Shown here: piece by piece, positions 9,016 to 32,997 of the stretch
Layout of the letters: each line of letters opens with the position of its first letter
Position numbering within the stretch: the first letter of the stretch is position 1
Position numbers and translations under genes: made by a program
NCBI GenBank assembly: GCA_050250755.1
Contig: JBFWOB010000030.1
Coordinates: 14,322-78,321 of the forward strand
Length of the DNA stretch: 64,000 nucleotides
From: Hyphomicrobiaceae bacterium
GTDB lineage: Bacteria > Pseudomonadota > Alphaproteobacteria > Rhizobiales > Hyphomicrobiaceae
Reading direction: 5' to 3'
The notes under the pieces: model-generated
Told to the model about the DNA's origin: nothing
The model's input: the letters and a program-made list of their open reading frames with translations, nothing else
The model's database searches: none

Positions 9016-9564
9016 ATGCTGTACGGCTACGCTCGGGTCAGCACGACCGATCAAGACTTGTCGATCCAGAAGGCAGCCCTGAAAGCTGCGGGATGCACTG
9101 TGATCCGGGCAGAGAAGGCGACCGGCACGACCCGCAAGGGCAGGACAGAACTTGAGACCCTGCTGGAGTTCATGCGGAAGGACGACACATTGGTCGTCAC
9201 CCGCATTGACCGGCTCGCCCGCAGCCTGAGGGATCTTCAGAACATCATGCACGAGCTGCGTGAGAAGGGCGCACATCTCAAGGCCACAGAGCAGCCGGTG
9301 GATACCTCAACGCCCGCTGGGAAGGCCTTCCTGGATATGCTGGGGGTGTTCTCTGAGTTCGAGACGAACCTTCGGCGTGAGAGGCAGATGGAAGGCATCC
9401 AAGCGGCAAAAGAACGGGGTGTCTACAAAGGGCGGCCGAAGAGTATCGACGCCGAGGAAGTCAGGAAATTGCTCGACGAGGGGATTGGCGCGACCGGGGT
9501 TGCAAAACGGCTAGGAATAGGGAGAGCGAGCGTTTACCGGCTAGCGTGCATCGGAAAAACCTAA
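9016..9564 (+). CDS. Serine recombinase (resolvase/invertase family)
   Basis: MLYGYARVSTTDQDLSIQ catalytic-Ser motif, resolvase core and C-terminal HTH (GATGVAKRLGIGRASVYR). Confidence 0.9.
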   Translation: MLYGYARVSTTDQDLSIQKAALKAAGCTVIRAEKATGTTRKGRTELETLLEFMRKDDTLVVTRIDRLARSLRDLQNIMHELREKGAHLKATEQPVDTSTPAGKAFLDMLGVFSEFETNLRRERQMEGIQAAKERGVYKGRPKSIDAEEVRKLLDEGIGATGVAKRLGIGRASVYRLACIGKT

Positions 9565-9573
9565 ATACGTGTA

Positions 9574-9602
9574 TTGACACAATTATGTGTTATACTTATA
9601 TC
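9574..9602 (+). promoter_or_regulatory. Sigma70-like promoter with overlapping palindrome
   Basis: TTGACA (9574-9579), 17-nt spacer, TATATC (9597-9602). ACACA-ATTA-TGTGT palindrome at 9577-9590. Downstream GGAGGA RBS at 9621-9626. Confidence 0.4.
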
Positions 9603-9630
9603 TGTGCTGCGAATGAGCACGGAGGACTAC

Positions 9631-10497: not shown

Positions 10498-10561
10498 CGA
10501 ACGCGCCTGTCCTTCCACTCACGGGTGCAAATAAGCCGTCAATGCTCATACAGGAGAAACA

Positions 10562-11230
10562 ATGCGCTACCTCTGCCGTGCAAGCGGCTGTGGCCGCACG
10601 ACTGCGACCCGCTTTTCGCGTTACTGCTCGGCCCACAAATCAAGGCAAAGAAGACACGGTGACCACGCACAAGCAGGCATTACTGCCGCTGACCTCAAGC
10701 CCTATGTCGCCCGTGTGCGCTGCCGCATGGAGAAGAACCAACACAACCCCGCCTGGGACGCCCTGGATGCCCGCTGGAGGGCCATTGTTGAGCACGCCGA
10801 GGGTGTCATCGCCCTGCAGCTTGCTGGCCGTCCTGGGAGCCGAGACGAGCGCACAGCGGCACGTGAAGTGAGCAAGCTCGGAGAAAACATCCCCGCACGG
10901 GCCGTGGTCCAGACGGTGCTCGCCGTAGTGATGATGTGGGAGTTCGAGCCACGGCGTTTCCGCAGCGACCGGTCCTTCAAGACCCAGCTCGTGCGCCGCG
11001 TAAGAGCTCTCACGGATATGAACTACGGCGAGCGCTACCATCATCCGTCGGCGACCGTGAAGCGATACTACAAGGACGTCTCACCACGAGCGACGGCGAT
11101 TTTGGGGCAATGGCTGGTAGAGGCCCTAGGGGGCGCTGGGCTCCATGTGGCCCGTCTCGAAAGGGCCGATCTCGAACAGGTCGAGAGCGAGAAGAGGGCG
11201 CTTCACAAGGCACTTTCGGAGTTGAACTGA
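10562..11230 (+). CDS. Hypothetical protein with N-terminal Cys/His knuckle
   Basis: 222 aa. N-terminus CRASGC...YCSAH. Stop is 1 nt before the next gene's ATG, which implies an operon. Confidence 0.55.
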   Translation: MRYLCRASGCGRTTATRFSRYCSAHKSRQRRHGDHAQAGITAADLKPYVARVRCRMEKNQHNPAWDALDARWRAIVEHAEGVIALQLAGRPGSRDERTAAREVSKLGENIPARAVVQTVLAVVMMWEFEPRRFRSDRSFKTQLVRRVRALTDMNYGERYHHPSATVKRYYKDVSPRATAILGQWLVEALGGAGLHVARLERADLEQVESEKRALHKALSELN

Positions 11231-11231
11231 T

Positions 11232-12650
11232 ATGCGCTCCGAGGATCTACCAGACCACAATTTGAAGCTTCCCCGCAAGAAGCCGAAGCCACCCGAGCCG
11301 CAGAAGCACCTGTGGTTCGACGGATGGATGTCGGCCAATGGATCGGCACTGAAGGGCCTGATCGAGGCAACGACCAAGTTCATTTCACACCACGAGGAGC
11401 ACACCGGAACTCGGATCAGGAAGCGGCGGCCTGTCGATCAGGCTGTTCACCTCCGTAGCATTGACGCTCTCGTGTGTGCTCTTGCCCACGCAGTCCTGGT
11501 CCCGCCGCCCACTGGCCGCATTGCTGTGAAGCTCGGTCATGCAGGGAAGGGACAGTCCCGCTACGATAGCCCTGTGTTCGGCAAAGCACTCTCGCCCCTC
11601 GTGCACCTTCTGTCTGACCTCGACTTTCTGAATTTGAAGCGGTCCACCTTGCGAGGAGAGGTCTCGTCCATTGCGCCCTCACCTTGGTTTGCTCAAAAGG
11701 TCGGGGAGTTTGGGGTTCAGCTAGCGGACTTCGGAAGACATCAAGATGAGGAAGTCATTTCCCTCACTTGCAATGCGAAGCGGTACAGCGGGTGGGCCGA
11801 TGATCGCATTGGGACGCTGTATCGAGAACCCATCGACTACAACGACACACCAACCACAACGAAGTACAGGGCCGAGCTCCGGACACTTAACGAGTTCCTG
11901 AAGAAGGCCGAGATCGACTTCCTCGATGATGGGCTGGAGCCACGAGTAGATCCGTTCGACAGACGCATGAGGCGGCGGTTCATCATCCTCCCCGATCAAC
12001 AAGTCCGCTTCAACCAAGGCGGGCGCCTTTTCGGCGGCTTCTGGCAGCAGCTCAAGAGAGAGCGACGGTCCCACATTCGGATCAATGCTGAGCCTGTCGT
12101 CGTGCTCGACTACGGCTCGATGTTCACAAGGCTGGCCTACGCTGTGATCGGCAAAGAGCCACCGGACGGAGACCTGTACGCCATACCTGGTTACGAGGGC
12201 TACCGCAGCGGGATCAAGCTGGCGATGAATGCGCTTCTCTTCGACAAAAGCCCCAGGAGGTCGAAGTGGCCCAAGGAAATAGGGATCGGCGTCGGCGACG
12301 ATGAGGATGCAAAAATGGATCGACGAGGGTCCGCGGCACAGTACGAGGCGCGCCTACCAACCGGCTCGACAGTGAAGAAGGTTAGGGATGCCACCCTGTC
12401 AGTGCATCCTCACCTGAGCAAGGCGTGGGGCAGGCAACTCGGCTACCAACTCATGTTCCTTGAAAGTGAGATTATGGTGGAGGTCCTTCGGCAACTCGCC
12501 AATCGGCGTATCCCAGCTCTGGGCCTTCACGACGGACTGTTGGTCTCTTCATCGAAGGCAACCGAGGCTGCCGGGGTGATGAGAGAAGTAGGTCGGGAGA
12601 AGTCGGGCTTGCTTCTGCCGGTCACTCAGAATGAACCTGAGGAGGAGTAG
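11232..12650 (+). CDS. Putative minimal superfamily-A (Pol I/T7-like) nucleotide polymerase
   Basis: 472 aa. Motif A VVVLDYGSMFTRLAYA (Asp codon 12108-12110). Motif B YRSGIKLAMNALLF (12204-12242). Motif C LGLHDGLLV (12528-12533). No exonuclease domain recognised. The function call is inference. Confidence 0.5.
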   Translation: MRSEDLPDHNLKLPRKKPKPPEPQKHLWFDGWMSANGSALKGLIEATTKFISHHEEHTGTRIRKRRPVDQAVHLRSIDALVCALAHAVLVPPPTGRIAVKLGHAGKGQSRYDSPVFGKALSPLVHLLSDLDFLNLKRSTLRGEVSSIAPSPWFAQKVGEFGVQLADFGRHQDEEVISLTCNAKRYSGWADDRIGTLYREPIDYNDTPTTTKYRAELRTLNEFLKKAEIDFLDDGLEPRVDPFDRRMRRRFIILPDQQVRFNQGGRLFGGFWQQLKRERRSHIRINAEPVVVLDYGSMFTRLAYAVIGKEPPDGDLYAIPGYEGYRSGIKLAMNALLFDKSPRRSKWPKEIGIGVGDDEDAKMDRRGSAAQYEARLPTGSTVKKVRDATLSVHPHLSKAWGRQLGYQLMFLESEIMVEVLRQLANRRIPALGLHDGLLVSSSKATEAAGVMREVGREKSGLLLPVTQNEPEEE

Positions 12651-13156: not shown

Positions 13157-14770
13157 TCAACTCTGGTCATCCCCTCCAGCCCCTTCCCATAAGCCGGGAA
13201 GCGGGATCAGACGGACTGCACGCTCCATGAGGCGGAGCGAAACTTCGCCGTAGGCGTCCGCTGCGGTGCGAGGGGCGTGTCCCTGTATCGCATCGAGAAC
13301 ACGCTTGTCGATGCCCTGCTCTAGACCAAGTGCACGGAACAGGTGCCGCCACGCATGGTTTGGGTCCTTCCGATGCCGACGTCCCACCTCAAGCCCAAGC
13401 GTGTGGACCCACGCTGCCACGTTTTTCGCTAGAATCTTAGGCTGTGGCCTCTTTGCTCCGACCTTCCGTTGGGAGGGGTCGAAGAACAGCGGTCCCGATC
13501 CTTTGGTTTCGACGAACTTAAGAAAGTCAACGCTTAGGACGTAGGGGTGAAGAGGAACCCGGCGTTCAGACGAAACGGTCTTCACACTGCCAGCTTCAGC
13601 CTTAATATCCATGAACCAGATATCGCCCTCTTGCCGAATGTCTTCGGCCCTGAGTTGACAAATCTCTGAGACCCGAGCCCCCGCTAGGGCACAGAGGAGA
13701 GGCACCCACCGGTAGACGGGGCTACTCTCTCTTGCGGCTGCTTGGAGGATCGCGGCGGCATCTGACAGGTCAAAGTTGCGCATCCTTTGGCCGGGCTTAG
13801 TTCCTCGTTTGATCGTAACACCTGCCGCAGCGTTGTGCTCGACGCGGCCGTTATCCACGGCCCAGCCCAAGACGACGCGAAGGGCAGCCAGCTTGCTTTT
13901 TCTAATAGTGGCCGGGGAATTACCCATAGCGAGAAGGCGATCCTTCCAAGCAATCACTGACTGCTTGCAGATGGCGTTAAGCTGGTCGGTTCCAGAAAAT
14001 GCGATGTAGGCTTCGATGTGCTTGCGCCACTCATCAACCGTCTTCTGCTTTGGTTGGGCTTCCTTGGCCCAAGCTTCGAATGCGTCCACGAGCGTTGCGC
14101 TACGCTGTTGGGAACTGCTCGACCGGTTGCCGCTTCTGCGGACAGGGAACCGGGCCTCCACGGGGTCCGGGGAGTAGTCGCCCTCGGAACGCCTTTCCAG
14201 CGTCTGGGCCGCCTTGATCAGAGCCGAGGCGACCGCGGTTAGGAGATCCGCCCTCGTCTTTTTATCCAAGCTGTAACCGTGGCGTTCCAGCCAGGGATCG
14301 AGCTTAATGTGTGGCTCCAGAATGCGTTCGGCCTGACGTGGGTGGTAAGGTGCGCTCTCGACCCCATCCGACGTCGGATCGAGGTACGCAGCGCCGTCCA
14401 GCAGCAAATCCTGGAAAATCGACCATTGCTCGGTCGGCCCGGGCTCATCTTCATGTTGGCCCACGAAGTCTCGATACCACTCACCCGCGATCTCATGGAT
14501 TTCCCGATGTGACAGCCCCGCCGGCGCCTGACGGGCAGTAGCCCAGCGAGCTTCGACCTGCGCCGACACGGACGAATGTCGTAGGCGAGCTTCCGCGATG
14601 TCCTTCGTTTTGAGGGAGACCTTTACGGTGGGGCCGAGTTTCACTGTGCTCGTCAACCCCGCTACGTCCACAGAGAAGCTGCGTCCGGACAGTACCTGGA
14701 GGAGGTCTGAGGGCAATCTTGCACGGTAGTACCAGACCCCCGTAGTGGGGTGGCGCCAAGGCTGAGCCAT
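13157..14770 (-). CDS. Tyrosine recombinase / phage-type integrase
   Basis: 537 aa from ATG 14770 (MAQPWRHP). C-terminal catalytic signature: ARVSEICQL, HAWRHLFR, AYGEV. Confidence 0.9.
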   Translation of the reverse strand: MAQPWRHPTTGVWYYRARLPSDLLQVLSGRSFSVDVAGLTSTVKLGPTVKVSLKTKDIAEARLRHSSVSAQVEARWATARQAPAGLSHREIHEIAGEWYRDFVGQHEDEPGPTEQWSIFQDLLLDGAAYLDPTSDGVESAPYHPRQAERILEPHIKLDPWLERHGYSLDKKTRADLLTAVASALIKAAQTLERRSEGDYSPDPVEARFPVRRSGNRSSSSQQRSATLVDAFEAWAKEAQPKQKTVDEWRKHIEAYIAFSGTDQLNAICKQSVIAWKDRLLAMGNSPATIRKSKLAALRVVLGWAVDNGRVEHNAAAGVTIKRGTKPGQRMRNFDLSDAAAILQAAARESSPVYRWVPLLCALAGARVSEICQLRAEDIRQEGDIWFMDIKAEAGSVKTVSSERRVPLHPYVLSVDFLKFVETKGSGPLFFDPSQRKVGAKRPQPKILAKNVAAWVHTLGLEVGRRHRKDPNHAWRHLFRALGLEQGIDKRVLDAIQGHAPRTAADAYGEVSLRLMERAVRLIPLPGLWEGAGGDDQS

Positions 14771-14871
14771 TCTGATGATCACGGACTGTGTACCTCTCCT
14801 GTGTACCTGCAGGAGAGGAAGAACCCATTGAAGCGCCTTAGTTATCTGAAAACATGGCGCTTTTAGGATCA

Positions 14872-15367: not shown

Positions 15368-15601
15368 TCAATCCTGATTGTCGCTTCCGTATTCGGAGGT
15401 GGAGGTGAACTTGTACCGGTTCACCCAGGCATCCAGGTCCTCATGCACGTAGACGACCTTGGCGCGCTTGCCGGGCCCAAGCTTATGATACGACGGGCCG
15501 GTGCCCTTGAGCCGCATGTCCTGCAACGTGCGCTCCGCCAGCCGGAGATAGGCGGCCGCCTCGCCGGTGGTCAGGTAGCGTACGTCCTCGTCATCGGTCA
15601 T
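15368..15601 (-). CDS. AlpA/MerR-type HTH protein (excisionase-like)
   Basis: 77 aa. YLTTGEAAAYLRLAERTLQDMRLKGTGP is typical of AlpA-family excisionases and regulators. Confidence 0.75.
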   Translation of the reverse strand: MTDDEDVRYLTTGEAAAYLRLAERTLQDMRLKGTGPSYHKLGPGKRAKVVYVHEDLDAWVNRYKFTSTSEYGSDNQD

Positions 15602-17875: not shown

Positions 17876-18055
17876 TGTGCCCAAAAAGTACACACGCGGT
17901 ATTTTCACTGCATGAACCACACCCCTATGTTTGCGTGATGGGAGCAAGCAAGTCTTTTGGGCCCAAAAATGGACCCAAAAGATGCTCAATCGGCCGGTGG
18001 CCTCAATCGCACGCGCTTGCTTGTCCCCTCAACGCCGGGGAGGGCTGTGACCGCC

Positions 18056-18454
18056 ATGTGCGCCGCCAAAAACCATAGAAAAGCACAACCGCTCTCCGAA
18101 CGGATCAAGGTCCAGTTGACGGTCGAGCAACGCGACATCCTCGAAGCAAGGGCTGAAGCAGCCGGAATCACACTGGCCGCCTATATGCGCCAGTGCGCAC
18201 TGGTATCGCTGGGCGGTCCGGGAGCGCCCAAACGGCCGCCCCTGAAGCGGAAACGCGAGCAGGAGCTCACGTTCGCGGAAATCCATGAGATGGCGATGCA
18301 GGTGCGCAAGGTGGGCATCAACCTGAACCAGCTCGCCCATCAGGCCAACAGCGGCCTGGTGCCGATCAAGCGCGAGGAAATCGTCTACATCCAGAACCGC
18401 ATCCAGACCGTCCTCAGCGAAGCCTCCGCCGCCATGGAAAGAGCCTTCCGATGA
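18056..18454 (+). CDS. mobC: MobC-family relaxosome accessory protein
   Basis: VGINLNQLAHQAN motif. ATGA overlap with the relaxase start. Start ATG 18056 chosen; the ORF-track start at 17957 is possible. Confidence 0.75.
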   Translation: MCAAKNHRKAQPLSERIKVQLTVEQRDILEARAEAAGITLAAYMRQCALVSLGGPGAPKRPPLKRKREQELTFAEIHEMAMQVRKVGINLNQLAHQANSGLVPIKREEIVYIQNRIQTVLSEASAAMERAFR

Positions 18455-19758
18455 TCGGCAAGGTGCCAAAGGCGGGACAGGGGTTCCGCGGCCTGGTCAA
18501 CTACCTGCTCAACGGCGACAAGGACCAGCAGCATGCTGCCAGGGAAGCAGGCTCCTCAGGCCTGCCGGCGAGCAGGGTGGCATGGTCCGCCATGCGCAAC
18601 ATGCTCATCACCGACCCCAATCTCGCACCGGGCCTGATGCGGGCAACCGCCCACAAGTCCAAACGGGTCAAGAGCCCCGTCTACCATTACGTGATCAGCT
18701 GGCACCCCGATGAGGCGCCTACCGACGACTTCATGCAACAGGTCTGCGATGTGACCTGCGACGACCTTGGATTGCAGGACTACCAGCGCCTCTACATCGC
18801 CCACCGCGACACCGATCACCACCACGTGCACATCGTGGTCAACCGCGTGCACCCGGAAACGGGCACCGCGTGGAACCGCCGGCAGGACTGGGTGCGCATC
18901 GAGCAAAGCCTCCGCCGCCAGTCCGAAAACATGGGCCTCGAAATCGTGCCGGGCCGCCACACCGACGGGCAACAGTTCAGGAACGTCGGCAAAAGGCCAT
19001 CGGACGGCGCCTTGCGGCGCAAGGCAATGAAACCGTCCGGGGTCCCCGAGCGCAGCTGGACCAAGGAGATGATCCGCGAACGGCGCGAGGCGCTGTCGCG
19101 CACGATCGACGCGTGCTCGAGCTGGAGCCAGTTGGACCGGGCGCTGTCCGTCATGGGCTACCGACTTCACCGCAAAGGGCAGGGGCTGGTCATCGCCGAT
19201 GCGGGCGGCACGATGAAGCTGTCGGATGTCGGCAAGACCATCCGCCTCAAGGCGCTCGAGGCGCGGTTCGGGCAGACCTTTGACCAGCACGAGACGCTGG
19301 CGCAGATGATGGACGACCAGGCGCGCGGGGCGTCGGTTGCCGCCCCGGTGTCCCTGACCGCACCGCCGCCTCCGCCGTCCCCCGCTCCGAGGGATACGCC
19401 CATGACGGCCGGCGCCTTACATCGCGCACCGCCGCTTTCTCCACCGTCGGCCGACCCCGATCGGGAACGTACCGCCGAGAAGTACACCGTCCTCGCCGGT
19501 GCCAAGGACAAGGCCGATCTCGCCGAAGCCTTGCGGGCGCTGGGCCTCGCCTCCGTCGACAACGTGCGCAGCGCCCGCGCCGAGGTCGTGAAAGCCATGG
19601 AAGATGTGGAAAAGGAGAAATCCGTCCTCGATCAGTTGATCAGTGATCTTGCCATCCCGGGTGCCGGCGGTAACGCTCCGAAGAAACATGACTCCGGACC
19701 AAGTGACAATGCCCCGCCCCCTCAGGACAAGCGCCGACGTTCGAGGCGCCGCCGCTAG
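18451..19758 (+). CDS. Relaxase/mobilisation nuclease (MobA/VirD2 type)
   Basis: N-terminal relaxase domain with His-rich metal motif HRDTDHHHVHIVVNRV. Pro/Ala-rich linker. C-terminus is KRRRSRRRR. Confidence 0.9.
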   Translation: MIGKVPKAGQGFRGLVNYLLNGDKDQQHAAREAGSSGLPASRVAWSAMRNMLITDPNLAPGLMRATAHKSKRVKSPVYHYVISWHPDEAPTDDFMQQVCDVTCDDLGLQDYQRLYIAHRDTDHHHVHIVVNRVHPETGTAWNRRQDWVRIEQSLRRQSENMGLEIVPGRHTDGQQFRNVGKRPSDGALRRKAMKPSGVPERSWTKEMIRERREALSRTIDACSSWSQLDRALSVMGYRLHRKGQGLVIADAGGTMKLSDVGKTIRLKALEARFGQTFDQHETLAQMMDDQARGASVAAPVSLTAPPPPPSPAPRDTPMTAGALHRAPPLSPPSADPDRERTAEKYTVLAGAKDKADLAEALRALGLASVDNVRSARAEVVKAMEDVEKEKSVLDQLISDLAIPGAGGNAPKKHDSGPSDNAPPPQDKRRRSRRRR

Positions 19759-19775: not shown

Positions 19776-20807
19776 ATGCCTGCCGCCAATCTCCGCCAAG
19801 GCAGCACGCTCTACGCCCTCGGCCTGCACCGGACGGAGGGAGCACACTGGTACGACATCAAATTGGGCGCCCCGTTCTCCAAAGGCGGCGCCGCGCGGCT
19901 TTGGCATGTCGAGAAGCCGGGCCTCGCGCTGCCGCTGGTGGCCAAGATCTGGAACAAGCAAGGCTTGGGCGAGGTCTTTTCAACTCCGGTGGAAGCCACC
20001 CGCGTGCTGCGGCTGGTCGCCAACCGCGACCAGCTTCACAACCACATCCCAGCGGTGGTCTGGCCACGCCGCCTGCTGTTCACCCGGCCGGAGCGGGACA
20101 ACGTCCAGCGGGATTTCCGCGGCTTCACCATGTCCCGCCTCGACCACATGCGGAAGCTGCATCACATCATCGCACTGTCCCAGAAAGGCCAGTCCCCGCT
20201 CACCTTCGACCAATCCAAACGCATGGTGCTGATGCTGTGCGAAGCGCTGCAGAAGCTGCACGAGCACCCCTGGCAGTTCCGCATCGCCGATTTTTCGCCA
20301 AACAACATCATGTTCAACGAAGACTTCACCACCCTGGCCTTCGTCGACGCCGACAGCTACCAGTTCCTCTATCCCGACCCCGAAAGCCGCACCAATATTC
20401 AATTTAGGCCCACCGGTTTCACCCTCGGCTATTCGTCTCCCAAAGCCGTCAAGGACGAGCTTCTGCGCAAGACGGGTGACCCGCCCGTTCTGGTCGATGA
20501 GCAACACGACCAGTTCGTGCTCGCCATCCACATCTTCCAGATCTACATGGCCCATCTCGGATTGGGCGGCGCGGCACCCTTCCAGAAATTCGAGCGCGGC
20601 AACGAGAACGATGCCATCGCCGCAGGCCGCTTCACCCATGACATGCCCAAGGACCACCAACCCAACGCGTTCGTCCAGGAACAATACCTCCGTATCCCGG
20701 CGCCCGTCCGCGAAGCCTTCAGCCGCACTTTCGCCCGTGGCAAACCCCTGACCACACGCGAATGGGCCGACCTGTGCTCAACGCACTGGAGGTCCCTTCA
20801 ACCCTGA
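19776..20807 (+). CDS. Protein-kinase-like fold protein (Ser/Thr kinase-like)
   Basis: Ordered but degenerate kinase motifs: Gly-rich loop (LGAPFSKGGAARLW), Lys (PLVAKIW), catalytic loop (IADFSPNNIMF), DFG-equivalent (FVDADSY), GYSSPK. Confidence 0.65.
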   Translation: MPAANLRQGSTLYALGLHRTEGAHWYDIKLGAPFSKGGAARLWHVEKPGLALPLVAKIWNKQGLGEVFSTPVEATRVLRLVANRDQLHNHIPAVVWPRRLLFTRPERDNVQRDFRGFTMSRLDHMRKLHHIIALSQKGQSPLTFDQSKRMVLMLCEALQKLHEHPWQFRIADFSPNNIMFNEDFTTLAFVDADSYQFLYPDPESRTNIQFRPTGFTLGYSSPKAVKDELLRKTGDPPVLVDEQHDQFVLAIHIFQIYMAHLGLGGAAPFQKFERGNENDAIAAGRFTHDMPKDHQPNAFVQEQYLRIPAPVREAFSRTFARGKPLTTREWADLCSTHWRSLQP

Positions 20808-20865
20808 AGCCACCCCCAACGGCGCCGACGCTCAAGTCCAGGCTCCCTCGGCCGCGGCTGTCGCC

Positions 20866-21573
20866 ATGCCCGCCTCCGTCCCATCGCGTCCAACCGCCCA
20901 ACCCGGCGCTCCGGCCCGGTTCACCCCGGTGGATTGGCCGGCAACATTCTGGAAGCTCCGCCGAGCCCTTGCCGCCGGCGTGACCCACTTGGTCGTAGCA
21001 TTTGCTCTCGCTGCTCTGTTTCTCCTGTTTCTCCAGTACCGCCACGGTCCTGTCTCCGCGCCACAGCCACCGACACCACCTGGCGGCATGCAACCATCCG
21101 ATTACCTGTCGCTGGAATGGCCGACCATTCCCTCCCAGGTTTCCTTGGTATCGCCCGTCCCGCCGTTGCCCCGGCCCAATCCGCGGCGCGAAACACCCGA
21201 CACCATCCGCGGCTCCGTCTATAAATACCTTTCTGTCTGCCTCAGCGCGCCGCACGACCCAAACAAACCCTTCGCCTGCATCCCGAAGGGGCGTGAGGTC
21301 CGCCGTGTGGGCGTCGATGTCTTCCTTCGCGTGAGGTCCGAAACCGGCTTTGCCGTCAGGGCGTGGGGAGCGACGGGCTTCACCACCGAAAGCCTCTGCC
21401 GCCAAGTGATCGCGGGTATGCGCGGAAGCCGTTGTGCTCCGAGCGAAATGCGGTTCGATCGCGGCGACGGCAGCTTCGGCACCATCCGGTTCGTCAGGGT
21501 CGAATTCGACGCCGACCCGGCGCCCGCACCACTGAACCCTTTGTCAGCACTGCGTAAACCGCGGCAGCCTTGA
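20866..21573 (+). CDS. Single-pass membrane protein with Pro-rich linker
   Basis: One hydrophobic helix (HLVVAFALAALFLLFLQY), a Pro-rich segment, and a ~120-aa C-terminal domain with 4 Cys. Confidence 0.5.
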   Translation: MPASVPSRPTAQPGAPARFTPVDWPATFWKLRRALAAGVTHLVVAFALAALFLLFLQYRHGPVSAPQPPTPPGGMQPSDYLSLEWPTIPSQVSLVSPVPPLPRPNPRRETPDTIRGSVYKYLSVCLSAPHDPNKPFACIPKGREVRRVGVDVFLRVRSETGFAVRAWGATGFTTESLCRQVIAGMRGSRCAPSEMRFDRGDGSFGTIRFVRVEFDADPAPAPLNPLSALRKPRQP

Positions 21574-21831
21574 GCGCCGCGTGGCCGGGGAGCTAGCACG
21601 AGGCGCAGAGAATCTCCACGCCATGGACGGGCATTGCACGGGTTGAGGGCGGCACGGTTCGAGGAGTTTCGCGGATGCCTGCTGCACAACCGACGGGCGC
21701 GTTTCGCGGCCCAGCCCGCCTCGCCAACAAAACTGTGGAACGACCCGGAAAGGCCGACACAGGACGATCCGTGAGCATCTAGGGTTATTGCTCACTTTGT
21801 TTCGATCATTGTACGCAAGGATACTTCCTCG

Positions 21832-22740
21832 ATGCCAAACCAGCCCCAGGATCCCGCGTGGCATACGTTCGGCAAGTCACCCCTCATCAACGGGGACGCC
21901 GGCGGAACGCCGATTCCCAAGGACAAGACGCACCTCAAGCGCTTTCCGTTCGTGTTCCTTGTGGATGTTTCCCATTCGACCTCGTTCGGCGGCGACAATG
22001 CCGACCTCCACGCCATCAACCGCGAGCTGCCGCGGTGTTTCGAGACCCTGAGGAGCCCGCCGCCCGACAGCGACCTCGCCAACGTGAAGGGGCAAATAGA
22101 TATCTGTTTGGTTACCTATTCGCAGACACCCAAGAACATCTTCCTGTGGCAACCCGCCGACGAGCTGCCGACCAGCGTCAGCCTCCAATCCGAAACCAAC
22201 ACCTCCACCCGCGCCGCCCTCAACCACGCGATGGACCTGATCGAAGAACGGCTGAAGCTCCTGAAGCAGCCCGGCCAGAAAGTGCAGACCGGCGCACCCC
22301 ACATCTTCCACATCACCGACGGCGTCCCCAACGACGTCTACCCGCACATGCCGGAATGGAAGCAACTGGTGGACCGCATTGCCGTGTTCGCCACCAACGC
22401 CGACCAGGACCGTGCCACCGACCAGAAGGGGCATATCCTGCATTTCGTCACGCCCAGTGCCGAGCGGATCAACAAAGACAACCGCTTCATCGATGAGAAC
22501 GGCAATGACATCTCCGGCAAGGAAGCGATGATCAAGCTGTCGGGCGAAAAGACCGTCATAACCCTCAACCGCGGCGCCAGCTCGCTGCCCGACGTGATCA
22601 AGCTGATCACCGCCATCATCAGCGTCAAATCCACCAACTCCAAAACCACCGTGGCGGAAACCATCGCCGAAGTGGTGGAGGAAAGCGACGGCGCGCTCGG
22701 CATGCCCGACAGCTACCCGGCTCTCGGCGCGAAACCATGA
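21832..22740 (+). CDS. vWA-domain protein (TerY-like)
   Basis: MIDAS motif DxSxS (FLVDVSHSTS, nt 21964-21981) and downstream HITDGVPND. Confidence 0.8.
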   Translation: MPNQPQDPAWHTFGKSPLINGDAGGTPIPKDKTHLKRFPFVFLVDVSHSTSFGGDNADLHAINRELPRCFETLRSPPPDSDLANVKGQIDICLVTYSQTPKNIFLWQPADELPTSVSLQSETNTSTRAALNHAMDLIEERLKLLKQPGQKVQTGAPHIFHITDGVPNDVYPHMPEWKQLVDRIAVFATNADQDRATDQKGHILHFVTPSAERINKDNRFIDENGNDISGKEAMIKLSGEKTVITLNRGASSLPDVIKLITAIISVKSTNSKTTVAETIAEVVEESDGALGMPDSYPALGAKP

Positions 22741-23558
22741 ACCCCGAGCTCGTGACCCAGTGCCGCCTCGCCACCGAGCAATGGCGGGGCTGGCTCATCT
22801 CGTCCGTGTCGCAGCAAGGCAAGCGCCACCACCAGCGTTCCCTGCCGACCGACGATGCCCTCCTGGTCGCCGCCGCCGGCGACCATCTTTTGCTCGGCGT
22901 GGCCGACGGCGTCTCAAGCTGCCCCTTGTCCCGCATCGGCTCTGAGCATGCCTTGGCCGCCATCTACGCCCACGTCGATCAGGCGCTCCTGAAATCCGGC
23001 GGCGAACCGAGCCCGGACATCCTCGCCCACGCCATGGCGAACGCCCACTATGCGCTGCAATCGCTTGCCGACCAGACCGGCGCCCCCATCGACGATTACT
23101 CAACCACCGTGGCAACCGTCCTGATCGGCCCCACCACCATCTACGCCGCCAATATCGGTGACAGCAGCCTCGCCTACCTCACCAAGCCCCGCAGCGCCGC
23201 CAACCCCGATACGGCGGTCCTCCTGCCGCTTTGCTCCGCCCCGCAGCAGGATGACGGGGTCACGCCCATCACGTTCCCCAACTGGAACAAGTTCCTTGCA
23301 CTTGCCCGCCACCCCGTCGACGGCGTCGATGCCGTGCTTCTTGCCACCGACGGCGCCGAGGACTTCCTGTTCAACGGCCGGCACGCCACCGGGCAGGTCC
23401 TGAGCCCCGCCGCCGTCAGCGCGTATCTGTCCAACTGCAACGACTTGTCGCCGAGGCTCCTGCCCCTGTTCCTCGCCGACTACATCCAGAAGCTCGACAA
23501 CGGCACCGACGACCGAAGCCTCATCATTGCCTCACCCCACCCGGCGCTGGCGTTATGA
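22737..23558 (+). CDS. PP2C-family Ser/Thr phosphatase
   Basis: Metal-binding Asp motifs LGVADGVSS and LLATDGAEDF. ATGA overlaps with vWA (22737-22740) and traG (23555-23558). Confidence 0.75.
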   Translation: MNPELVTQCRLATEQWRGWLISSVSQQGKRHHQRSLPTDDALLVAAAGDHLLLGVADGVSSCPLSRIGSEHALAAIYAHVDQALLKSGGEPSPDILAHAMANAHYALQSLADQTGAPIDDYSTTVATVLIGPTTIYAANIGDSSLAYLTKPRSAANPDTAVLLPLCSAPQQDDGVTPITFPNWNKFLALARHPVDGVDAVLLATDGAEDFLFNGRHATGQVLSPAAVSAYLSNCNDLSPRLLPLFLADYIQKLDNGTDDRSLIIASPHPALAL

Positions 23559-25567
23559 TCAGCCCGCCCACCGACCTCTCCCCGTTCACCCCGACCACCC
23601 TGATGGCCCTGGTCGACGCCATCCTCGACGATCCGGCCGCCCGCATCCGCCAGCCCACCATCGAAATCCTCAACCAGATCGGCGACCGGCCGCTGCATGA
23701 CCTGATCTCGAGACATGTGAAGGGCTACCTTTCCCGCAGCGACGCCGTGGTGGAGCAGCTGCCTGCGCTCGGCACGGTGAACTGGGGCAAGGTCGCCGCC
23801 ACCATCTACACGCGCCTCTCATCCGACATCCGCCGCAACGCGCGCTTCAGGCTGGCCTACAGCCTGTCCATCGAATACCCGGCGGCGATGCTCACGGAGA
23901 AGGACCGCGCCGCCATCCGCGGCATGGCGCAGCTGGTCGCCCATGCCAAGATCACCCCTCACGAATGGGCACTGTTCCTGGCCCGCATGGCATGGCATGA
24001 CGGCAAGGGCCACCTCGTCGCCGGCCCCGCCGCCAAAAGTGCCGCCATTTTGGCCGAAACCGTCACCATCCTGAAAAACATCCTGCCGACGGTGCTGCCC
24101 GCCCACGAGGTGGTGCTTGGTGACGCCGTCGCCAGGATCTCCCGCCATGCCCTGGCGCCCGTGCAACAGGCGCTGCCGCCGCCAGGCTTCAAACGCGGCA
24201 TCCGGTTCCTGAAGGGGGCCGACATCGACGGCACGCCCTATCTTGCCACCAAGGCCTCCAAGGCCAGCCTCTACCTCGGCCGCATGCCGCGCACCCGCGA
24301 GCACATCTACTACGCCGGCCACGAGAGTCTCATCACCATCGGCGGGCCGGGCAGCGGCAAGAGCATGGCGCATGTCATTCCCAACCTGCTCCTCTACCCG
24401 GGCTCGGCGCTGGTGCTGGATGTGAAAGGCGAGCTCTGGGACATGACCGCCGGATACCGCGCGAAGCACTTCGGGCCGGTGTTCCGGTTCTCGCCCACCG
24501 ACACCGGCGGGCGCACCCACCGCTACAACCCGTTCGACTTCATCTCCGCCGACATGCAGGAGGCGGCCAACGACTGCGAGGTGTTCTCCTATCAGGTGAT
24601 CGTCCCCAACCCCGAAACGCGCGAGCCGTTCTGGGACAACCGCGCGCGGGACTTTTTGTGGGCCTTCGCCATGATCATCGCCGCCTCGCCGAACCCCAAG
24701 AACCGCATCATGGAGGCCCTCTCCGACCTGACCGCCATCCCCACCGAGTTCAAAGACCTCACCAAACGCCCCTACATCGGCTCCAAGACCCAGAAGGTCA
24801 TCCAGACCCTGCACCTGATGGCTAAGCAGTTCGACATCCCGGACCTCGGGCATGCCGCCACCTCCATCGAATCCAGCCTGGTCGAAAGCGAGCGCCTCAC
24901 CAGCATCTTCGACAATGTCCGCCGCGCCCTCGCGCTGTTTGGGCGTTCCAAGAGGCTGCGCAACGCCATGGCAACCAGCGACTGGCGGCCAGAACAGCTG
25001 CGCAACCAACCCGGTTCCACCATCTACCTCTGCATCCCCGATTCCGAGCTCAAGGCCTACGCCCCCATCATCCGCGTGATGTTCTCCCAGCACCGCCGCA
25101 TCCTGAGCCGGCATCGCGCCGACCCGAAAGAGGCGCCCATCACCTTCTTCCTCGATGAAATGCCTCAGTTGGGGACATTCGACGACATCCTCACCATGCA
25201 GGACCTCGGCCGCGGCGCGGGGCTGCGCCTCTGGATGTTCGCCCAGTACATGTCCCAGATCCGCAACGCCTACGGCCAGGACCGCACCACCGGCATCATC
25301 GAGGCCAACCGCATCCGCTGCTACATGCAGCCCGACATGGATGCCGCGACCCATCTCGAGCGCGCCCTCGGCGACACCGTCAATGAGCTGACCGGCGAAC
25401 GCCGCCCGCTTGCCACCGTCCCCGAGCTGCAAAGCTCGCCCGACTACACCAACAAAATCATCCTGTCCGTGCGCGGGCATCTCCCGGCCGTACTCGACAA
25501 GGTGATGGCCTTCGAGAAACTCAAGGACCGCATGATTTCCCCGCCGGACGTGCCGGTCGCCGGTTGA
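23555..25567 (+). CDS. traG: Type IV coupling protein (TraG/VirD4 family)
   Basis: Walker A GGPGSGKSM and Walker B FFLDEMPQLG. The N-terminal ~250 aa has no obvious TM helix. Confidence 0.85.
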   Translation: MISPPTDLSPFTPTTLMALVDAILDDPAARIRQPTIEILNQIGDRPLHDLISRHVKGYLSRSDAVVEQLPALGTVNWGKVAATIYTRLSSDIRRNARFRLAYSLSIEYPAAMLTEKDRAAIRGMAQLVAHAKITPHEWALFLARMAWHDGKGHLVAGPAAKSAAILAETVTILKNILPTVLPAHEVVLGDAVARISRHALAPVQQALPPPGFKRGIRFLKGADIDGTPYLATKASKASLYLGRMPRTREHIYYAGHESLITIGGPGSGKSMAHVIPNLLLYPGSALVLDVKGELWDMTAGYRAKHFGPVFRFSPTDTGGRTHRYNPFDFISADMQEAANDCEVFSYQVIVPNPETREPFWDNRARDFLWAFAMIIAASPNPKNRIMEALSDLTAIPTEFKDLTKRPYIGSKTQKVIQTLHLMAKQFDIPDLGHAATSIESSLVESERLTSIFDNVRRALALFGRSKRLRNAMATSDWRPEQLRNQPGSTIYLCIPDSELKAYAPIIRVMFSQHRRILSRHRADPKEAPITFFLDEMPQLGTFDDILTMQDLGRGAGLRLWMFAQYMSQIRNAYGQDRTTGIIEANRIRCYMQPDMDAATHLERALGDTVNELTGERRPLATVPELQSSPDYTNKIILSVRGHLPAVLDKVMAFEKLKDRMISPPDVPVAG

Positions 25568-25829: not shown

Positions 25830-27449
25830 ATGCCGACGAACCAACAGCCCGCCGCCAGCAGCGCTGAAATTGGCCCGTTCGGTCCGCTTCGACACGGTGT
25901 GTTCCGAAACATGTGGCTGGCCAGCATATTCTCCAACCTGGGACTGTTTGTTCTGGGTGTGGGTGCTGCCTGGGATATGACGCTCATGAGCGGTTCGGCG
26001 AGCATGGTCGCATTGGTTCAGACCGCCATGATGCTTCCCGTCGCGCTGTTCTCCTTGGCGTCGGGTGCCATCGCCGACATGTTCGATCGCCGCAAGGTGG
26101 CGCTTGTTGCGCTGGTGATCTCGATCTGTGGATCGATCGTCCTTGCTCTCATGGCGCACACCGGACACATCACTCCCGGATCCATGCTCGCCCTGTGCTT
26201 CATCGTCGGCTCGGGCACCGCGCTCCTTTGGCCCGCTTGGGGCGCCTCTGTCGGAGAGCAGGTGCCGCCGGACGTATTGCCAGCGGCGGTGGCGCTCAAC
26301 GGCATCAGCTACAATGCTGCCCGCAGCTTCGGACCGGCCATCGGGGGCGTCATCGTTGCGGCGGCTGGTGGCGTGGCTGCATTCGCGACGGCGGCACTGT
26401 CCTATATCCCTCTGCTCATCGTACTTTACCTATGGCGACGCCAAGGTGAGCCCTCGCGGCTGCCTCCGGAGAGCCTTGGGCGTGCCATGATCTCCGGCTT
26501 GCGCTACGTCAGCAACGCGCCGTCAATTCGCGTGGTGATTGGCCGAACGTTGATAACCGGCCTCGCAGGTGGCTCGGTGGCAGCGCTTCTACCCCTTGTC
26601 TCGCGCGATCTGCTGCTGGGCGGCGCTCAGTTGTTCGGTCTTCTTCTCGGGGCCTTTGGCATCGGTTCGATTTGCGGGGCCTTCAGCTTCTCCCTTTTGC
26701 GAGATCGCATGAGCGGCGAGGCGGTGGTTCGCCTGTGCACGTTGGGCATGGGTTTGGGCGTTGCCGTCATTGCCGAGAGCCGTCTGCCGGTGCTCACGGT
26801 CGCTGCCCTCGTCCTGTTCGGGGCCGCTTGGACGGGATGCATGATGAGCTTTAACGTGACGGTGCAGATGTCGGCCCCTCGCTGGGTCGCCGCGCGCAGT
26901 CTCGCGGCGTATCAAGCTGCTGTGGCTGCAGGTGTCGCGCTTGGCGGATGGGGCTGGGGGGTGCTGGCCAACGACTGGGGAGTCGACCGCGCGCTCCTGG
27001 CCTCCGCTGCCGCCCTGCTCGTGTCGATAGCCCTTGGCCAGTGGTTGCGTGTTCCAACGATCGGTTCTCAGAAAGCGGTGTCCGGCAATGAGTTATCCGA
27101 CCCGGACGTGCAAATTCCGCTTACCGCCCGCAGCGGCCCGATTGTCGTCGAGATCGAGTATCGCGTCGAAACCGACCGAGCGCGCCCCTTCCATGCGGTG
27201 ATGCAGCGAGTCCGGTCGAGCCGGACACGCAATGGCGCCTACGGCTGGTCCATCGCACGTGACATTGCCGATCCGGAGATCTGGATCGAGCGCTATTCAT
27301 GCCCCACTTGGCATGACTATCTGCGCCAGAGGAACCGGCCGACAACGGCAGAGCGCGAACTTCACGCGCGTGCAGCAGAGTTCCACATCGGCCCGGAGCC
27401 GGTACGTGTCCATCGCATGCTCGAACGCCCGGTCGGCTCTGTCCGCTGA
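25830..27449 (+). CDS. MFS transporter with soluble C-terminal extension
   Basis: About 12 hydrophobic helices over the first ~400 aa, then a ~130-aa hydrophilic tail. Confidence 0.8.
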   Translation: MPTNQQPAASSAEIGPFGPLRHGVFRNMWLASIFSNLGLFVLGVGAAWDMTLMSGSASMVALVQTAMMLPVALFSLASGAIADMFDRRKVALVALVISICGSIVLALMAHTGHITPGSMLALCFIVGSGTALLWPAWGASVGEQVPPDVLPAAVALNGISYNAARSFGPAIGGVIVAAAGGVAAFATAALSYIPLLIVLYLWRRQGEPSRLPPESLGRAMISGLRYVSNAPSIRVVIGRTLITGLAGGSVAALLPLVSRDLLLGGAQLFGLLLGAFGIGSICGAFSFSLLRDRMSGEAVVRLCTLGMGLGVAVIAESRLPVLTVAALVLFGAAWTGCMMSFNVTVQMSAPRWVAARSLAAYQAAVAAGVALGGWGWGVLANDWGVDRALLASAAALLVSIALGQWLRVPTIGSQKAVSGNELSDPDVQIPLTARSGPIVVEIEYRVETDRARPFHAVMQRVRSSRTRNGAYGWSIARDIADPEIWIERYSCPTWHDYLRQRNRPTTAERELHARAAEFHIGPEPVRVHRMLERPVGSVR

Positions 27450-27747: not shown

Positions 27748-28329
27748 ATGGATAACCAAAAACCGCAACAGGGCGAATTCGCCATCAACCTCAACTTCCG
27801 CCGCAACGGCAATCCGAAGGCGCCGGCCCTTTCCGGCCGCATCAGCGCCCCGGACTCCCCCGACAAGATCCTCTCCTTCGATGCCTTCGAGCACCAGAAC
27901 GACAAGGGCAAGTTCTGGATCGGCAGCGTTGACCCGCGCGGCGCCTCCATGCGCAACGCGCTGAGCAACACCGCTCCCGAACGCGGCACCCATTTCATCG
28001 CCATCCGCGAGAACGGCTTCAAGGTCTTCCGCGAGGACGCCGAGGGCAACCCGAACCCCGCCTATCAGGCGCTCACCGACGCGGAGAAAAAGCAGCACGA
28101 CGCGCTACCGTCCTACTGGGCCGTGTGGACCCGTGGCCGCAACGATCCTGAGATCCGCGCCGCCGCCTGGGAGCGCAAGCCCACCCGCTATGGACCCTGG
28201 GCGTCCGGAAGCACCCAATACCCGCAGCGCGGCATGGATGCCGCCGAAGCCTACATCGACCAGGCGCCCGGACCCGATGAGATCCCGTTCTTCGACCACG
28301 CGACCGCCGGCAACGAGGGCAGGGCGTAG
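27748..28329 (+). CDS. Hypothetical protein
   Basis: 193 aa. ATG 27748 is preceded by AAGAAAGGGAA. Followed by a terminator. Confidence 0.55.
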   Translation: MDNQKPQQGEFAINLNFRRNGNPKAPALSGRISAPDSPDKILSFDAFEHQNDKGKFWIGSVDPRGASMRNALSNTAPERGTHFIAIRENGFKVFREDAEGNPNPAYQALTDAEKKQHDALPSYWAVWTRGRNDPEIRAAAWERKPTRYGPWASGSTQYPQRGMDAAEAYIDQAPGPDEIPFFDHATAGNEGRA

Positions 28330-31619: not shown

Positions 31620-32997
31620 GCTCCGCAGAGAAATGTATGGACCGGCTGCTGGACGCAATCGAGATCGCGCGTGGGGATCGGAAGTCGCTGATATGTATCC
31701 GGCCTGTTTGATCGGCTCGCGGGCCGTGGCCTTGATGGGAATACGCGCGCACCACTGGTCTCATTAGCGGATAGGCCGTCAAGCGGCCATTTCTCTGCCC
31801 AGACTTTGGATGCGCATTTTCGTCCGTTCCATGCATTGATCTCTGTCGCGAACCTCTTCGATGTCGTCAGGCTAGACCGCAATCGTCTCGTCGAACCTCC
31901 TATCGTGCCGCAAGATGCTCCAGGCGATGCGCGCCAGTTTGTTGGCGAGCGCGGTCGCAAGCTTGTTGCGATGAAGCCGAGGCGCTACTTGCTGCAGCCA
32001 CGCACCAAAGCTAAACCGCGCCCAGTTGTGCGGGCGCATCAGGATGATGTTCGCCGCCTGGATGAAAAGTGTTCGCAGATACTTGCTGCCGCGCTTGGAG
32101 ATACGCCCCAGGATCGGCCGACCGCCCGTGCTGTACTGGCGTGGGATTAGGCCCAGCCAGGCGCCGAAGTCGCGCCCGCGACCAAAGGCTTCGCCAGTGC
32201 CGATGGCGGCGACCATGGCAGTGGAGATCAGAGGGCCGACGCCGGGGATGCTCATCAGGCGCTGGCAGTTCGCCTCTTTCTTACTGAGCGCCTCGATCTC
32301 CCGCGTTACCGTCTCGATGCGTTCGTCGAGCCAGAGCCAGTCCTCGTAGAGACCGACGATGAGATCAGCCATCCGCGGCGAAATCTCCTTCTCGCGGTTC
32401 TTCAGAATCTCGAACAAGGAGTTGCGCAGTGCTCTCGATCCAGTGCGGACAGCGATACCCTGCTCGATCAAGAAGGCGCGGATCTGGTTGATTGTGGCGG
32501 TGCGGCGGGAAACCAATCGGGATCTAACGCGATGGCAGGCCTGCAGGTCGAGCTGATCCTGCGTCTTCTCTTGCACAACGCGGAGGTTCGGCCGAAGTGC
32601 CGCTTCAGCGATGGCCTCGGCATCGTTGTAGTCGTTCTTTTGTCCCTTTAGGAACGGCTTCACATGGATCGCCGGAATGATCCGCGGCTGGTGGCCGAGC
32701 TGGCGAAGAACGCGGCTGACAAAGTGCGCGCTGAGGCACGCTTCCATGCCCACGATGCAAGGCGGCAGCGCTTTGAATGTATCGGCGAGTGCCAATCGCT
32801 TGATCTTGCGGCGCAACGCGATCTTGCCTGAGGTGTCGAAAGCGACGAGGTGAAAAACGTCCTTGCCGATGTCGATACCAATCGAGGCGAAAGCTGGCGC
32901 AATGGTATCCATGAGCTGCTTCTCCTGTTCGTCGCGGGTCAAGGTCTTTGCAGACTAACCCGCTGGGGAAGCAGCCGGTCCATTCCATTAGCCGACT
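31620..32997 (-). mobile_element. IS110-family insertion sequence (IS1111-like layout)
   Basis: Perfect 14-bp subterminal inverted repeat: ATGGACCGGCTGCT at 31637-31650 and AGCAGCCGGTCCAT at 32970-32983. TCGAAC occurs at both outer junctions (31614-31619 and 32998-33003). Single transposase gene. Ends are approximate. Confidence 0.6.
31872..32912 (-). CDS. IS110-family transposase/recombinase
   Basis: ATG 32912 (MDTIAPAFASIGIDIGKD) with a GGAGAA RBS. N-terminal DEDD-type region (IGIDIGKD...GMEACLSAH...YNDAEAIAEA). Confidence 0.9.
   Translation of the reverse strand: MDTIAPAFASIGIDIGKDVFHLVAFDTSGKIALRRKIKRLALADTFKALPPCIVGMEACLSAHFVSRVLRQLGHQPRIIPAIHVKPFLKGQKNDYNDAEAIAEAALRPNLRVVQEKTQDQLDLQACHRVRSRLVSRRTATINQIRAFLIEQGIAVRTGSRALRNSLFEILKNREKEISPRMADLIVGLYEDWLWLDERIETVTREIEALSKKEANCQRLMSIPGVGPLISTAMVAAIGTGEAFGRGRDFGAWLGLIPRQYSTGGRPILGRISKRGSKYLRTLFIQAANIILMRPHNWARFSFGAWLQQVAPRLHRNKLATALANKLARIAWSILRHDRRFDETIAV

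Follow-up and report, generated by a model that had tools for sequence, protein, structure and literature searches.

In the type VI secretion system (T6SS), the PpkA-PppA-Fha1 pathway sets a transmembrane (TM) Hanks-type kinase, a PP2C phosphatase and a von Willebrand factor A (vWA) domain inside the secretion cluster, where they gate the machine post-translationally, and the archaeal vWA protein ArnB, together with eukaryote-like kinases and phosphatases, governs a surface machine. The TerY-P 'phosphorylation triad' was reportedly described by Anantharaman, Iyer and Aravind in 2012. In Escherichia coli, YegI is a membrane kinase (10.1101/819920) that autophosphorylates and is dephosphorylated by PphC, a partnership shown in vitro (10.1101/819920, 10.1101/303594), and TerY-P has been reported, in the passages of PMC7699616 and PMC11090510 that summarise Gao et al. 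(2020), as a defence against T7-like phages. Here we examine a set of this type in a 64,000-nucleotide stretch of a Hyphomicrobiaceae genome (assembly GCA_050250755.1, contig JBFWOB010000030.1, positions 14,322 to 78,321), referred to throughout as the window, where genes for a kinase, a single-pass membrane protein, a vWA protein and a PP2C phosphatase lie between the relaxase and the type IV coupling protein (T4CP) of a well-supported integrative mobilizable element (IME).

Each ingredient is known separately: the triad, IMEs equipped with a T4CP of their own, and the regulation of other secretion systems by kinases and phosphatases. What appears to be undescribed is their combination: a YegIKL-type triad with a membrane partner, fixed in a relaxase-T4CP operon and inherited with it. 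A full-text literature search, whose coverage did not extend to the 2012 TerY-P paper, returned no relevant work joining PP2C, relaxase, coupling protein and vWA, and the word stem 'phosphorylat' is absent from a 2025 review of type IV secretion. That the set is such a triad and belongs to the backbone of the transfer module can be held with high confidence; what it does there is a matter of more tentative argument, taken up below.

Gene layout and junctions

The module runs from a mobC gene to the T4CP gene, all on the plus strand, as follows:

17957..18454, plus strand: MobC/NikA-like relaxosome accessory protein (Pfam PF21983, E 2.9e-11; PF05713, E 1.7e-7)
18451..19758, plus strand: MOBP-type relaxase, 435 aa, with an Arg-rich C-terminus (Pfam PF03432, E 3.7e-29; PF22863)
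19776..20807, plus strand: YegI-type eukaryote-like Ser/Thr kinase domain, soluble, 343 aa (hhalign; AlphaFold2 (AF2) model and Foldseek)
20866..21573, plus strand: proline-rich single-pass membrane protein, 235 aa (hydropathy)
21574..21831, no strand: 258-bp spacer (sequence reading)
21832..22740, plus strand: YegL/TerY-like cytoplasmic vWA protein, 302 aa (hhalign, AF2)
22737..23558, plus strand: PP2C-type Ser/Thr phosphatase, PphC/YegK-like, 273 aa (Pfam PF13672, hhalign)
23555..25567, plus strand: VirD4/TraG-type coupling protein (T4CP), 670 aa (Pfam PF02534, E 7.9e-55; PF10412; PF12696)

The 3' end of mobC overlaps the relaxase start by 4 nt, and the relaxase itself matches the NCBIfam model TraI_MobP_relax at E 5.5e-54, under the curated cut-off. 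Between the relaxase stop (TAG, 19756-19758) and the kinase ATG at 19776 lies a gap of 17 nt, and ATGA overlaps join vWA to PP2C (22737-22740) and PP2C to T4CP (23555-23558); on direct reading of the sequence, this geometry, together with the length of the spacer, is just as an earlier note on this DNA had claimed. The resulting order, kinase-membrane protein-spacer-vWA-PP2C-T4CP, departs from the contiguous vWA-PP2C-kinase order of the YegI-PphC-YegL triad. At the head of the module, a 13-nt inverted repeat (TCTTTTGGGCCCA / TGGACCCAAAAGA, with a 4-nt gap; 17953-17982) straddles the likely mobC start codon and is a candidate operator or site of translational control.

Conservation of the set in related elements

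The order mobC-relaxase-kinase-(proline-rich membrane protein)-vWA-PP2C-T4CP is found in about 30 loci, nearly all of them from Hyphomicrobiales, and it persists across independent genomes and metagenomes at 25-55% protein identity. Only five relatives of the kinase were returned by a word-indexed search of 5.8 billion proteins, and every one of their contigs that reaches the neighbouring genes (loci L001, L003 and L004) has this order. Approached from the other end of the module, an alignment scan for the T4CP across 185,579 species genomes (GTDB) gave 19 loci, of which 16 share the unusual N-terminal domain of the window protein; all 16 come from Hyphomicrobiaceae or related Alphaproteobacteria. 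Genes for kinase, vWA and PP2C lie between relaxase and T4CP in 11 of these 16, some of the copies being damaged, and the relaxase abuts the T4CP without any triad in four. A metagenome scan seeded with the vWA protein, and so unbiased as to the T4CP, likewise gave 19 loci. The T4CP lies downstream in all 14 that have enough downstream flank, with the PP2C directly between vWA and T4CP in 12; the exceptions are L036, where about 1.7 kb including a second vWA-like open reading frame (ORF) separates vWA from PP2C (8726-10530), and L044, which lacks the PP2C (5537-6502).

The members of the set have also diverged in step with the T4CP. Pairwise T4CP distances correlate with those of vWA (r = 0.97), PP2C (r = 0.97) and kinase (r = 0.92) more closely than with those of the relaxase (r = 0.79), and none of 2000 permutations matched the correlations between triad and T4CP. 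The junctions are tight: the series from relaxase to T4CP is wholly contiguous or overlapping in L047, and the PP2C stop overlaps the T4CP ATG or GTG in most loci. Where insertions do occur, namely 2.8 kb between relaxase and kinase in L012 (3880-6664), about 2 kb of extra genes at the position of the spacer in the close relative L004, and the second vWA-like ORF of L036, they all lie upstream of PP2C, so that the PP2C-T4CP pair is the tightest link of the module; no locus that has a PP2C shows it separated from the T4CP. Cargo, in contrast, differs from element to element, the window having a zeta-like pair and an MFS_3 gene where L001 has a Fic gene and another ORF, whilst the small backbone ORFs that flank them are shared.

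The vWA protein offers a further measure of how narrowly the set is distributed. A profile search gave 18 matches at E<=1e-58, followed by a gap down to ordinary YegL-like proteins at 4e-13, and an exhaustive search of 1.84 billion representatives placed about 42 clusters in the family at E<=1e-30. In the cases examined this subfamily was never seen away from the T4CP, the nearest relatives outside it belong to classical PP2C-vWA-vWA-kinase loci that have no T4CP, and no relative was found in 72,556 plasmids. The set is confined to about 40 protein clusters and one bacterial order. Conserved synteny, co-divergence with the T4CP and tight or overlapping junctions together uphold the proposal of the earlier note that the set is part of the DNA-transfer module and not variable cargo. 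That note had named a sporadic insertion with its own promoter as an outcome that would overturn its reading; the survey of homologous modules reported here speaks against such an insertion.

Losses and damaged copies

In a bootstrapped neighbour-joining tree of the T4CP (200 replicates), the four sequences that lack the triad were monophyletic in 0/200 replicates, and the triad-less pair from Methyloligella was nested with the triad-bearing L010 in 200/200. The set was therefore present early in the T4CP clade and has been lost cleanly at least once. The other triad-less pair, from Rhodomicrobium and an uncultured organism, is stable as a pair and uncertain in its position in the tree, and represents either a second loss or an early branch. 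Damaged copies of the triad occur in L015, L017, L021 and L044. Given this decay and the clean loss, the set is accessory to mobilisation and not mechanically required for it.

Identity of the triad proteins

Alignments of the window proteins and their relatives were compared with the E. coli K-12 yegI-pphC-yegL locus. The kinase has zero Pfam matches, but its family alignment matches YegI residues 15-307 from end to end (hhalign probability 99.3%, E 3.8e-20), its profile matches 259 PDB protein kinases, and its AF2 model, with a predicted local distance difference test score (pLDDT) of 72 and a predicted template modelling score (pTM) of 0.76, retrieves 1694 PDB kinase chains in Foldseek, PknB and Stk1 among them. 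Mutagenesis of YegI has shown that K39, D141 and the D-S-D motif that stands in place of DFG are essential (bioRxiv 10.1101/819920). In the window kinase, K57, D172 and D191-A-D193 align with these residues; the family shows no variation at D172, D191 or D193 and retains K57 in at least 90% of its sequences, whilst N177, the canonical catalytic-loop Asn that YegI lacks, is present and conserved. The earlier note had called this kinase degenerate, a description that does not survive the alignment, in which every residue essential in YegI is present; on these residues, the protein is divergent, not degenerate. It ends directly after the kinase domain and has neither a C-terminal OB-fold nor a zinc ribbon. 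Defence-type TerY-P kinases bear one or the other, the OB-fold in stand-alone defence loci and the zinc ribbon in CoCoNuT systems (PMC11090510).

For the vWA protein, matches to Pfam are sub-threshold only (E about 2e-3), and the family alignment matches YegL with hhalign probability 98.8% and E 6.4e-17. Its AF2 model is a confident vWA fold (pLDDT 81), and the residues of the metal ion-dependent adhesion site (MIDAS), D45-x-S47-x-S49, T124 and D163, are invariant both in 12 and in 18 sequences, in agreement with the earlier report of an intact motif. The phosphatase matches Pfam PP2C_2 (PF13672) at E 6.9e-22, the family alignment matches PphC/YegK with hhalign probability 98.1% and E 9.4e-14, and its profile matches tPphA in the PDB at 6e-14. 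The metal-binding residues D40, D57, D142, D205, D258 and D259 are invariant, and D57 aligns with D46 of PphC, which is essential and catalytic there (bioRxiv 10.1101/303594).

At the level of profiles, then, the three proteins are a triad of the TerY-P/YegI-YegK-YegL type, distant but clear homologues of the E. coli proteins. The matches to YegI, YegL and PphC thereby bear out the assignment that the earlier note had made from the sequence alone. All three members look active, judged by their conserved residues, and since the catalytic residues of kinase and phosphatase are invariant, enzymatic activity is evidently under selection. Defence-system profiles say less: PADLOC-DB v2 gave no match for the vWA protein or PP2C of the window, nor for the controls (E. 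coli YegL and PphC, and L046, a classical PP2C-vWA-vWA-kinase locus), so that this negative is uninformative, and its PD-T4-6 defence-kinase models match the family kinases weakly to moderately.

The coupling protein

The T4CP conserves the Walker A motif GPGSGKS and the motif FFLDEMP. It has no N-terminal TM anchor, its maximum 19-residue hydropathy being 1.47 (0.86-1.66 in 20 orthologues), and this unusual absence is a trait of the whole family, triad-less members included. In place of the anchor is a soluble-looking domain of about 250 residues (23555-24319), found likewise in all 20 orthologues, for which there was no Pfam match and for which a word-indexed protein search with the domain alone returned nothing. 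The nearest T4CPs on plasmids are about 30% identical and belong to small mobilizable plasmids of Rhizobiaceae and Xanthobacter that have no triad.

The membrane protein and the spacer

Between kinase and vWA, the earlier note had placed an extra single-pass membrane protein with a four-Cys C-terminal domain, and hydropathy and translation agree with it. There is one strong hydrophobic segment at residues 38-56 (19-residue Kyte-Doolittle-type mean, KD19, 2.46), and the translation has a proline-rich stretch and four Cys in a C-terminal part that is predicted to be periplasmic. The sequence is 45% identical in L004, which is an 80%-identical relative of the window, and similarity to the L001 protein is undetectable (E 0.11), even though identity in the flanking proteins of that locus is 43-58%. 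The features that recur among relatives are the slot itself, its proline richness, usually one TM segment and paired C-terminal Cys. As position, proline, TM segment and Cys alone recur, and no similarity between window and L001 is detectable, a conserved sensor domain in this protein was considered and rejected.

TM ORFs fill the same slot in L006, L008, L010 and L016, and in L014 a single protein of 592 aa joins the kinase to a proline-rich linker and TM region (L014 6525-8303). Because of this fusion, and because YegI is itself a membrane kinase, we infer that kinase and membrane protein may be the two halves of a split receptor kinase whose extracytoplasmic part evolves fast.

The 258-bp spacer is present in the window as claimed; it is not a general feature of these loci, the genes being contiguous or overlapping in most relatives. 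The hairpin to which the earlier note had drawn attention within it fares worse. The inverted repeat at 21771-21795 (7 bp) does exist in the sequence. It is absent from the minimum free energy (MFE) fold, the region folds no better than its shuffles (z = 0.12), and the 80%-identical relative has not preserved the left arm; a terminator scan gave nothing at this position and there is no Rfam family within 17-26 kb. The repeat was accordingly rejected as a terminator or regulator. Nor did a promoter consensus scan find a promoter in the spacer.

A possible gate on DNA transfer and its alternatives

The set could reversibly gate the export of DNA by the T4CP that the element encodes, modulating mobilisation without being required for it. 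The membrane protein would sense a cue in the envelope or periplasm, such as contact with the mating apparatus of a helper, and would thereby activate the kinase; the kinase would phosphorylate itself and a component of transfer, be it the vWA adaptor, the anchor-less T4CP or the relaxosome; the vWA protein would dock its partner through the MIDAS site, and PP2C would reset the phosphorylation state. That a split receptor kinase/phosphatase switch, working with a vWA adaptor, controls the T4CP or relaxosome in this manner is a tentative proposal, to which we would give somewhat less than even weight. Worded as a transmembrane Ser/Thr phospho-relay that gates the conjugative coupling protein or relaxosome and in which the vWA protein is a phospho- or metal-dependent adaptor, it is a little more doubtful again. 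Identity and gating mechanism taken together as one combined statement seem to us evenly poised.

One must consider a number of points that weigh against a gate. The spacer before vWA in both the window and L001 makes co-transcription of all the genes only putative. No T4CP residue was found that is conserved solely in triad-bearing loci and no phospho-acceptor was identified, and neither FHA nor any other phospho-binding domain occurs among the element proteins scanned with Pfam. The four triad-less relatives presumably mobilise without the set, and as they share the anchor-less T4CP, the set is not its obligatory membrane tether. The damaged copies suit dispensable cargo as well as they suit a regulator, and TerY-P triads elsewhere have been linked to defence and DNA-restriction systems (PMC11090510, PMC4978471, PMC7699616).

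One alternative is that the set is a TerY-P-type defence against phages or competing elements, carried to the benefit of both host and element and aimed at some process of phage or foreign DNA and not at the T4CP, for which the mobilisation operon provides expression only. The triad is homologous to YegIKL/TerY-P, for which protection against T7-like phages is reported in PMC7699616 and PMC11090510 after Gao et al. (2020), and the dispensability of the set for mobilisation and its decay in some loci fit equally well. The membrane partner evolves very fast, as sensors of conflict systems often do, the window is rich in defence genes (a type I restriction-modification (R-M) system and a SIR2_2 protein), and there are the weak to moderate matches of family kinases to PD-T4-6 models. 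Yet the kinase has a membrane partner where defence-type TerY-P kinases have an OB-fold or zinc ribbon (PMC11090510), and defence cargo is usually variable, whereas this set keeps its synteny and follows the divergence of the T4CP more closely than the relaxase does. Translational coupling to the T4CP in most loci, a vWA subfamily never seen apart from the T4CP in the cases examined when its outside relatives sit in classical loci lacking one, and the absence of a nuclease or other effector gene beside the set all point away from defence, which we consider less likely than the gate and yet a serious rival to it.

Two further explanations keep the set within transfer and give it a different part from that of a gate. 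Its role might be mainly structural, membrane protein, kinase and vWA recruiting the anchor-less T4CP to the membrane or to the helper's channel, with phosphorylation secondary. Neither the T4CP nor any of its 20 orthologues has a TM segment, the set supplies the only membrane protein of the module, and the vWA fold matches integrin I-domains and Rea1-MIDAS; vWA/MIDAS domains are protein-docking modules. The triad-less relatives, however, share the anchor-less T4CP and encode no membrane protein between it and the relaxase, the sequence of the membrane protein is unconserved, and the invariant catalytic residues of kinase and phosphatase show enzymatic activity to be under selection; a mainly structural role is improbable. 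Least probable is that at least one of the proteins leaves the donor with the DNA, through a helper's type IV secretion system (T4SS), and acts in the recipient, for example in establishment or counter-defence. The genes do adjoin the T4CP, which is the receptor for substrates, and the relaxase ends in an Arg-rich tail of the kind typical of T4SS signals, but kinase, vWA and PP2C lack such tails, and the membrane-anchored partner and the kinase-TM fusion favour action in the envelope of the donor. A reversible gate on DNA export is the most likely of the four readings.

The host element and its surroundings

That the module is the mobilisation part of an IME of about 18 kb, with its own relaxase and T4CP, is well supported. 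Its remaining features are:

13157..14782, minus strand: tyrosine recombinase/integrase on the left side of the element (DUF6538 and Phage_integrase; PF00589, E 3e-9; PF20172, E 5.6e-11)
15368..15601, minus strand: HTH_17 (AlpA/excisionase-like) protein (PF12728, E 2.8e-9; by tblastx about 65% to L001 3596-3844)
16253-17211, minus strand: zeta-toxin-like P-loop protein (209 aa) and a small upstream ORF
25830-27449: MFS_3 'transmembrane secretion effector' transporter (E 2.8e-163), between the T4CP and the 193-aa ORF
27748-28329: conserved backbone ORF of 193 aa

The integrase is long (541 aa), with an N-terminal DUF6538 and a modest Phage_integrase score (E 3e-9). That of L003 is different, P4-like with Arm-DNA-bind_3 and Phage_int_SAM_3, so the mobilisation module has been combined with different integration modules. 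The zeta-toxin-like gene and its small upstream ORF are likely a toxin-antitoxin pair; in L004, the spacer between kinase and vWA holds a P-loop gene of 209 aa, 33% identical, together with a partner of 83 aa (2638-3518), and related cassettes therefore occupy different sites in sister elements. As L001 has a different ORF in its place, MFS_3 looks like element-specific cargo. In L047, a related element, the cargo downstream of the T4CP (9896-12309) is a bufferin-type cluster for a ribosomally synthesised and post-translationally modified peptide (BufA1, MbnB/TglH, HvfC, DoxX). The right part of the element consists of several conserved ORFs without known domains, ending before an IS110-family transposase (31872-32942, minus strand) that lies just past the last ORFs common with L001 and may mark or disrupt the right end.

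Neither a scan of the ORFs between 13 and 31 kb nor one of the large ORFs throughout the window turned up any T4SS family, and the element must therefore borrow the channel of a helper, supplying the relaxase and T4CP itself. A search for att sites gave no convincing direct repeats on either side of the element, the window has no tRNA, and near-identical DNA was not found in plasmids. The nick-like core ATCCTG occurs once, 150 bp upstream of mobC (17807), and is not conserved in 16 relatives; the MOBP nick core thus did not define an origin of transfer. Beyond the element, the surroundings resemble a defence island, with a complete type I R-M system (HsdR/S/M) at 2133-8184 (minus strand), an 849-aa S8 subtilase at 45177-47726 (plus strand) and a 1269-aa SIR2_2-domain protein at 51341-55150 (minus strand). 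A resolvase (9016-9564) and a helix-turn-helix protein also belong to these surroundings.

Significance

How a donor senses mating contact and releases DNA to the coupling protein is described as still unclear in the abstract of PMC4949242. A receptor-type kinase, a phosphatase and a vWA adaptor coupled to a T4CP would be a concrete and mutable candidate for the path of such a mating signal, one that occurs in cultured organisms (Hyphomicrobium isolates, among them Hyphomicrobium zavarzinii ATCC 27496 with L006, Hyphomicrobium sp. GJ21 with L016 and sp. CS1BSMeth3 with L003). The set also bears on the physiological role of TerY-P/YegIKL triads, that of E. coli included, for in the window an obvious candidate client is encoded beside the triad. 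If the proposed gate is real, it would be a conjugation counterpart of T6SS threonine phosphorylation and the first eukaryote-like kinase/phosphatase control of T4CP-dependent DNA transfer; should the set instead prove to be a defence, it would be an unusual one, fixed in a transfer operon and inherited with it.

Comparison with known systems

All three members of E. coli YegI/PphC/YegL are homologous to the window set at the level of profiles, and the vWA-PP2C order with its 4-nt overlap in K-12 (yegL 6470-7129, pphC 5712-6473; L025) is kept in the window. The kinase is of the same unusual type, in which D-x-D replaces DFG; YegI cannot function without this motif (10.1101/819920). At 343 aa against 648 aa, however, it lacks the two TM helices and the C-terminal region of YegI and is followed by a separate single-pass protein, whilst it retains N177, the Hanks Asn, and the Arg of subdomain XI, neither of which is present in YegI. 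The kinase gene has moved upstream, and the T4CP gene holds the slot, overlapping the PP2C stop, that the kinase gene has in E. coli. Where YegIKL and TerY-P stand in chromosomal or defence loci, the triad of the window stands in a mobilisation operon.

The TerY-P defence and type II/III-A CoCoNuT modules have the same three-component composition (PMC11090510). Extended CoCoNuT loci have TerY-like vWA genes on the flanks of FtsK/EssC-like or VirB4-like ATPases (PMC11090510), a recurring pairing of vWA with translocase ATPase that resembles the window, the T4CP being likewise a hexameric ATPase of the conjugation machinery. The kinases of these systems carry the OB-fold or zinc ribbon that the window kinase lacks, and no McrBC, helicase or HEPN partners accompany the window set. 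Among mobilizable replicons, the small Rhizobiaceae and Xanthobacter plasmids pNCHU2750e and NZ_CP063366.1 resemble the window element in having a relaxase and a VirD4/TraG T4CP without mating-pair genes. They differ from it in having no kinase, vWA or PP2C and in a relaxase that is MOBQ and divergently oriented, and the window element, unlike these plasmids, is integrated and has an integrase and an excisionase-like gene. Canonical VirD4/TraG T4CPs have an N-terminal TM anchor, whereas the window protein and its 20 orthologues have none.

Two systems of machine control also offer analogies. The archaeal ArnA/ArnB archaellum module (PDB 8s05, 5a8j) has in ArnB a stand-alone cytoplasmic vWA protein like that of the window, and by sequence the vWA profile finds its best PDB match in ArnB (8s05_A, E 3.7e-5), which is among the structural matches too; ArnB, however, pairs with the FHA/zinc-finger protein ArnA and acts on gene expression, and in the window neither an FHA partner nor a DNA-binding one is seen. 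In the T6SS, the vWA domain of PpkA is fused to the kinase, on the periplasmic side, and the pathway includes an FHA protein, whilst in the window the vWA protein is separate and cytoplasmic and the Pfam scan found no FHA reader in the element. The machine acted upon would also differ, being the T6SS in the one case and the T4CP or relaxosome in the other. For a mechanism in which kinase, phosphatase and vWA adaptor might gate a transport machine from within its own operon, PpkA-PppA-Fha1 nonetheless offers the best functional analogy.

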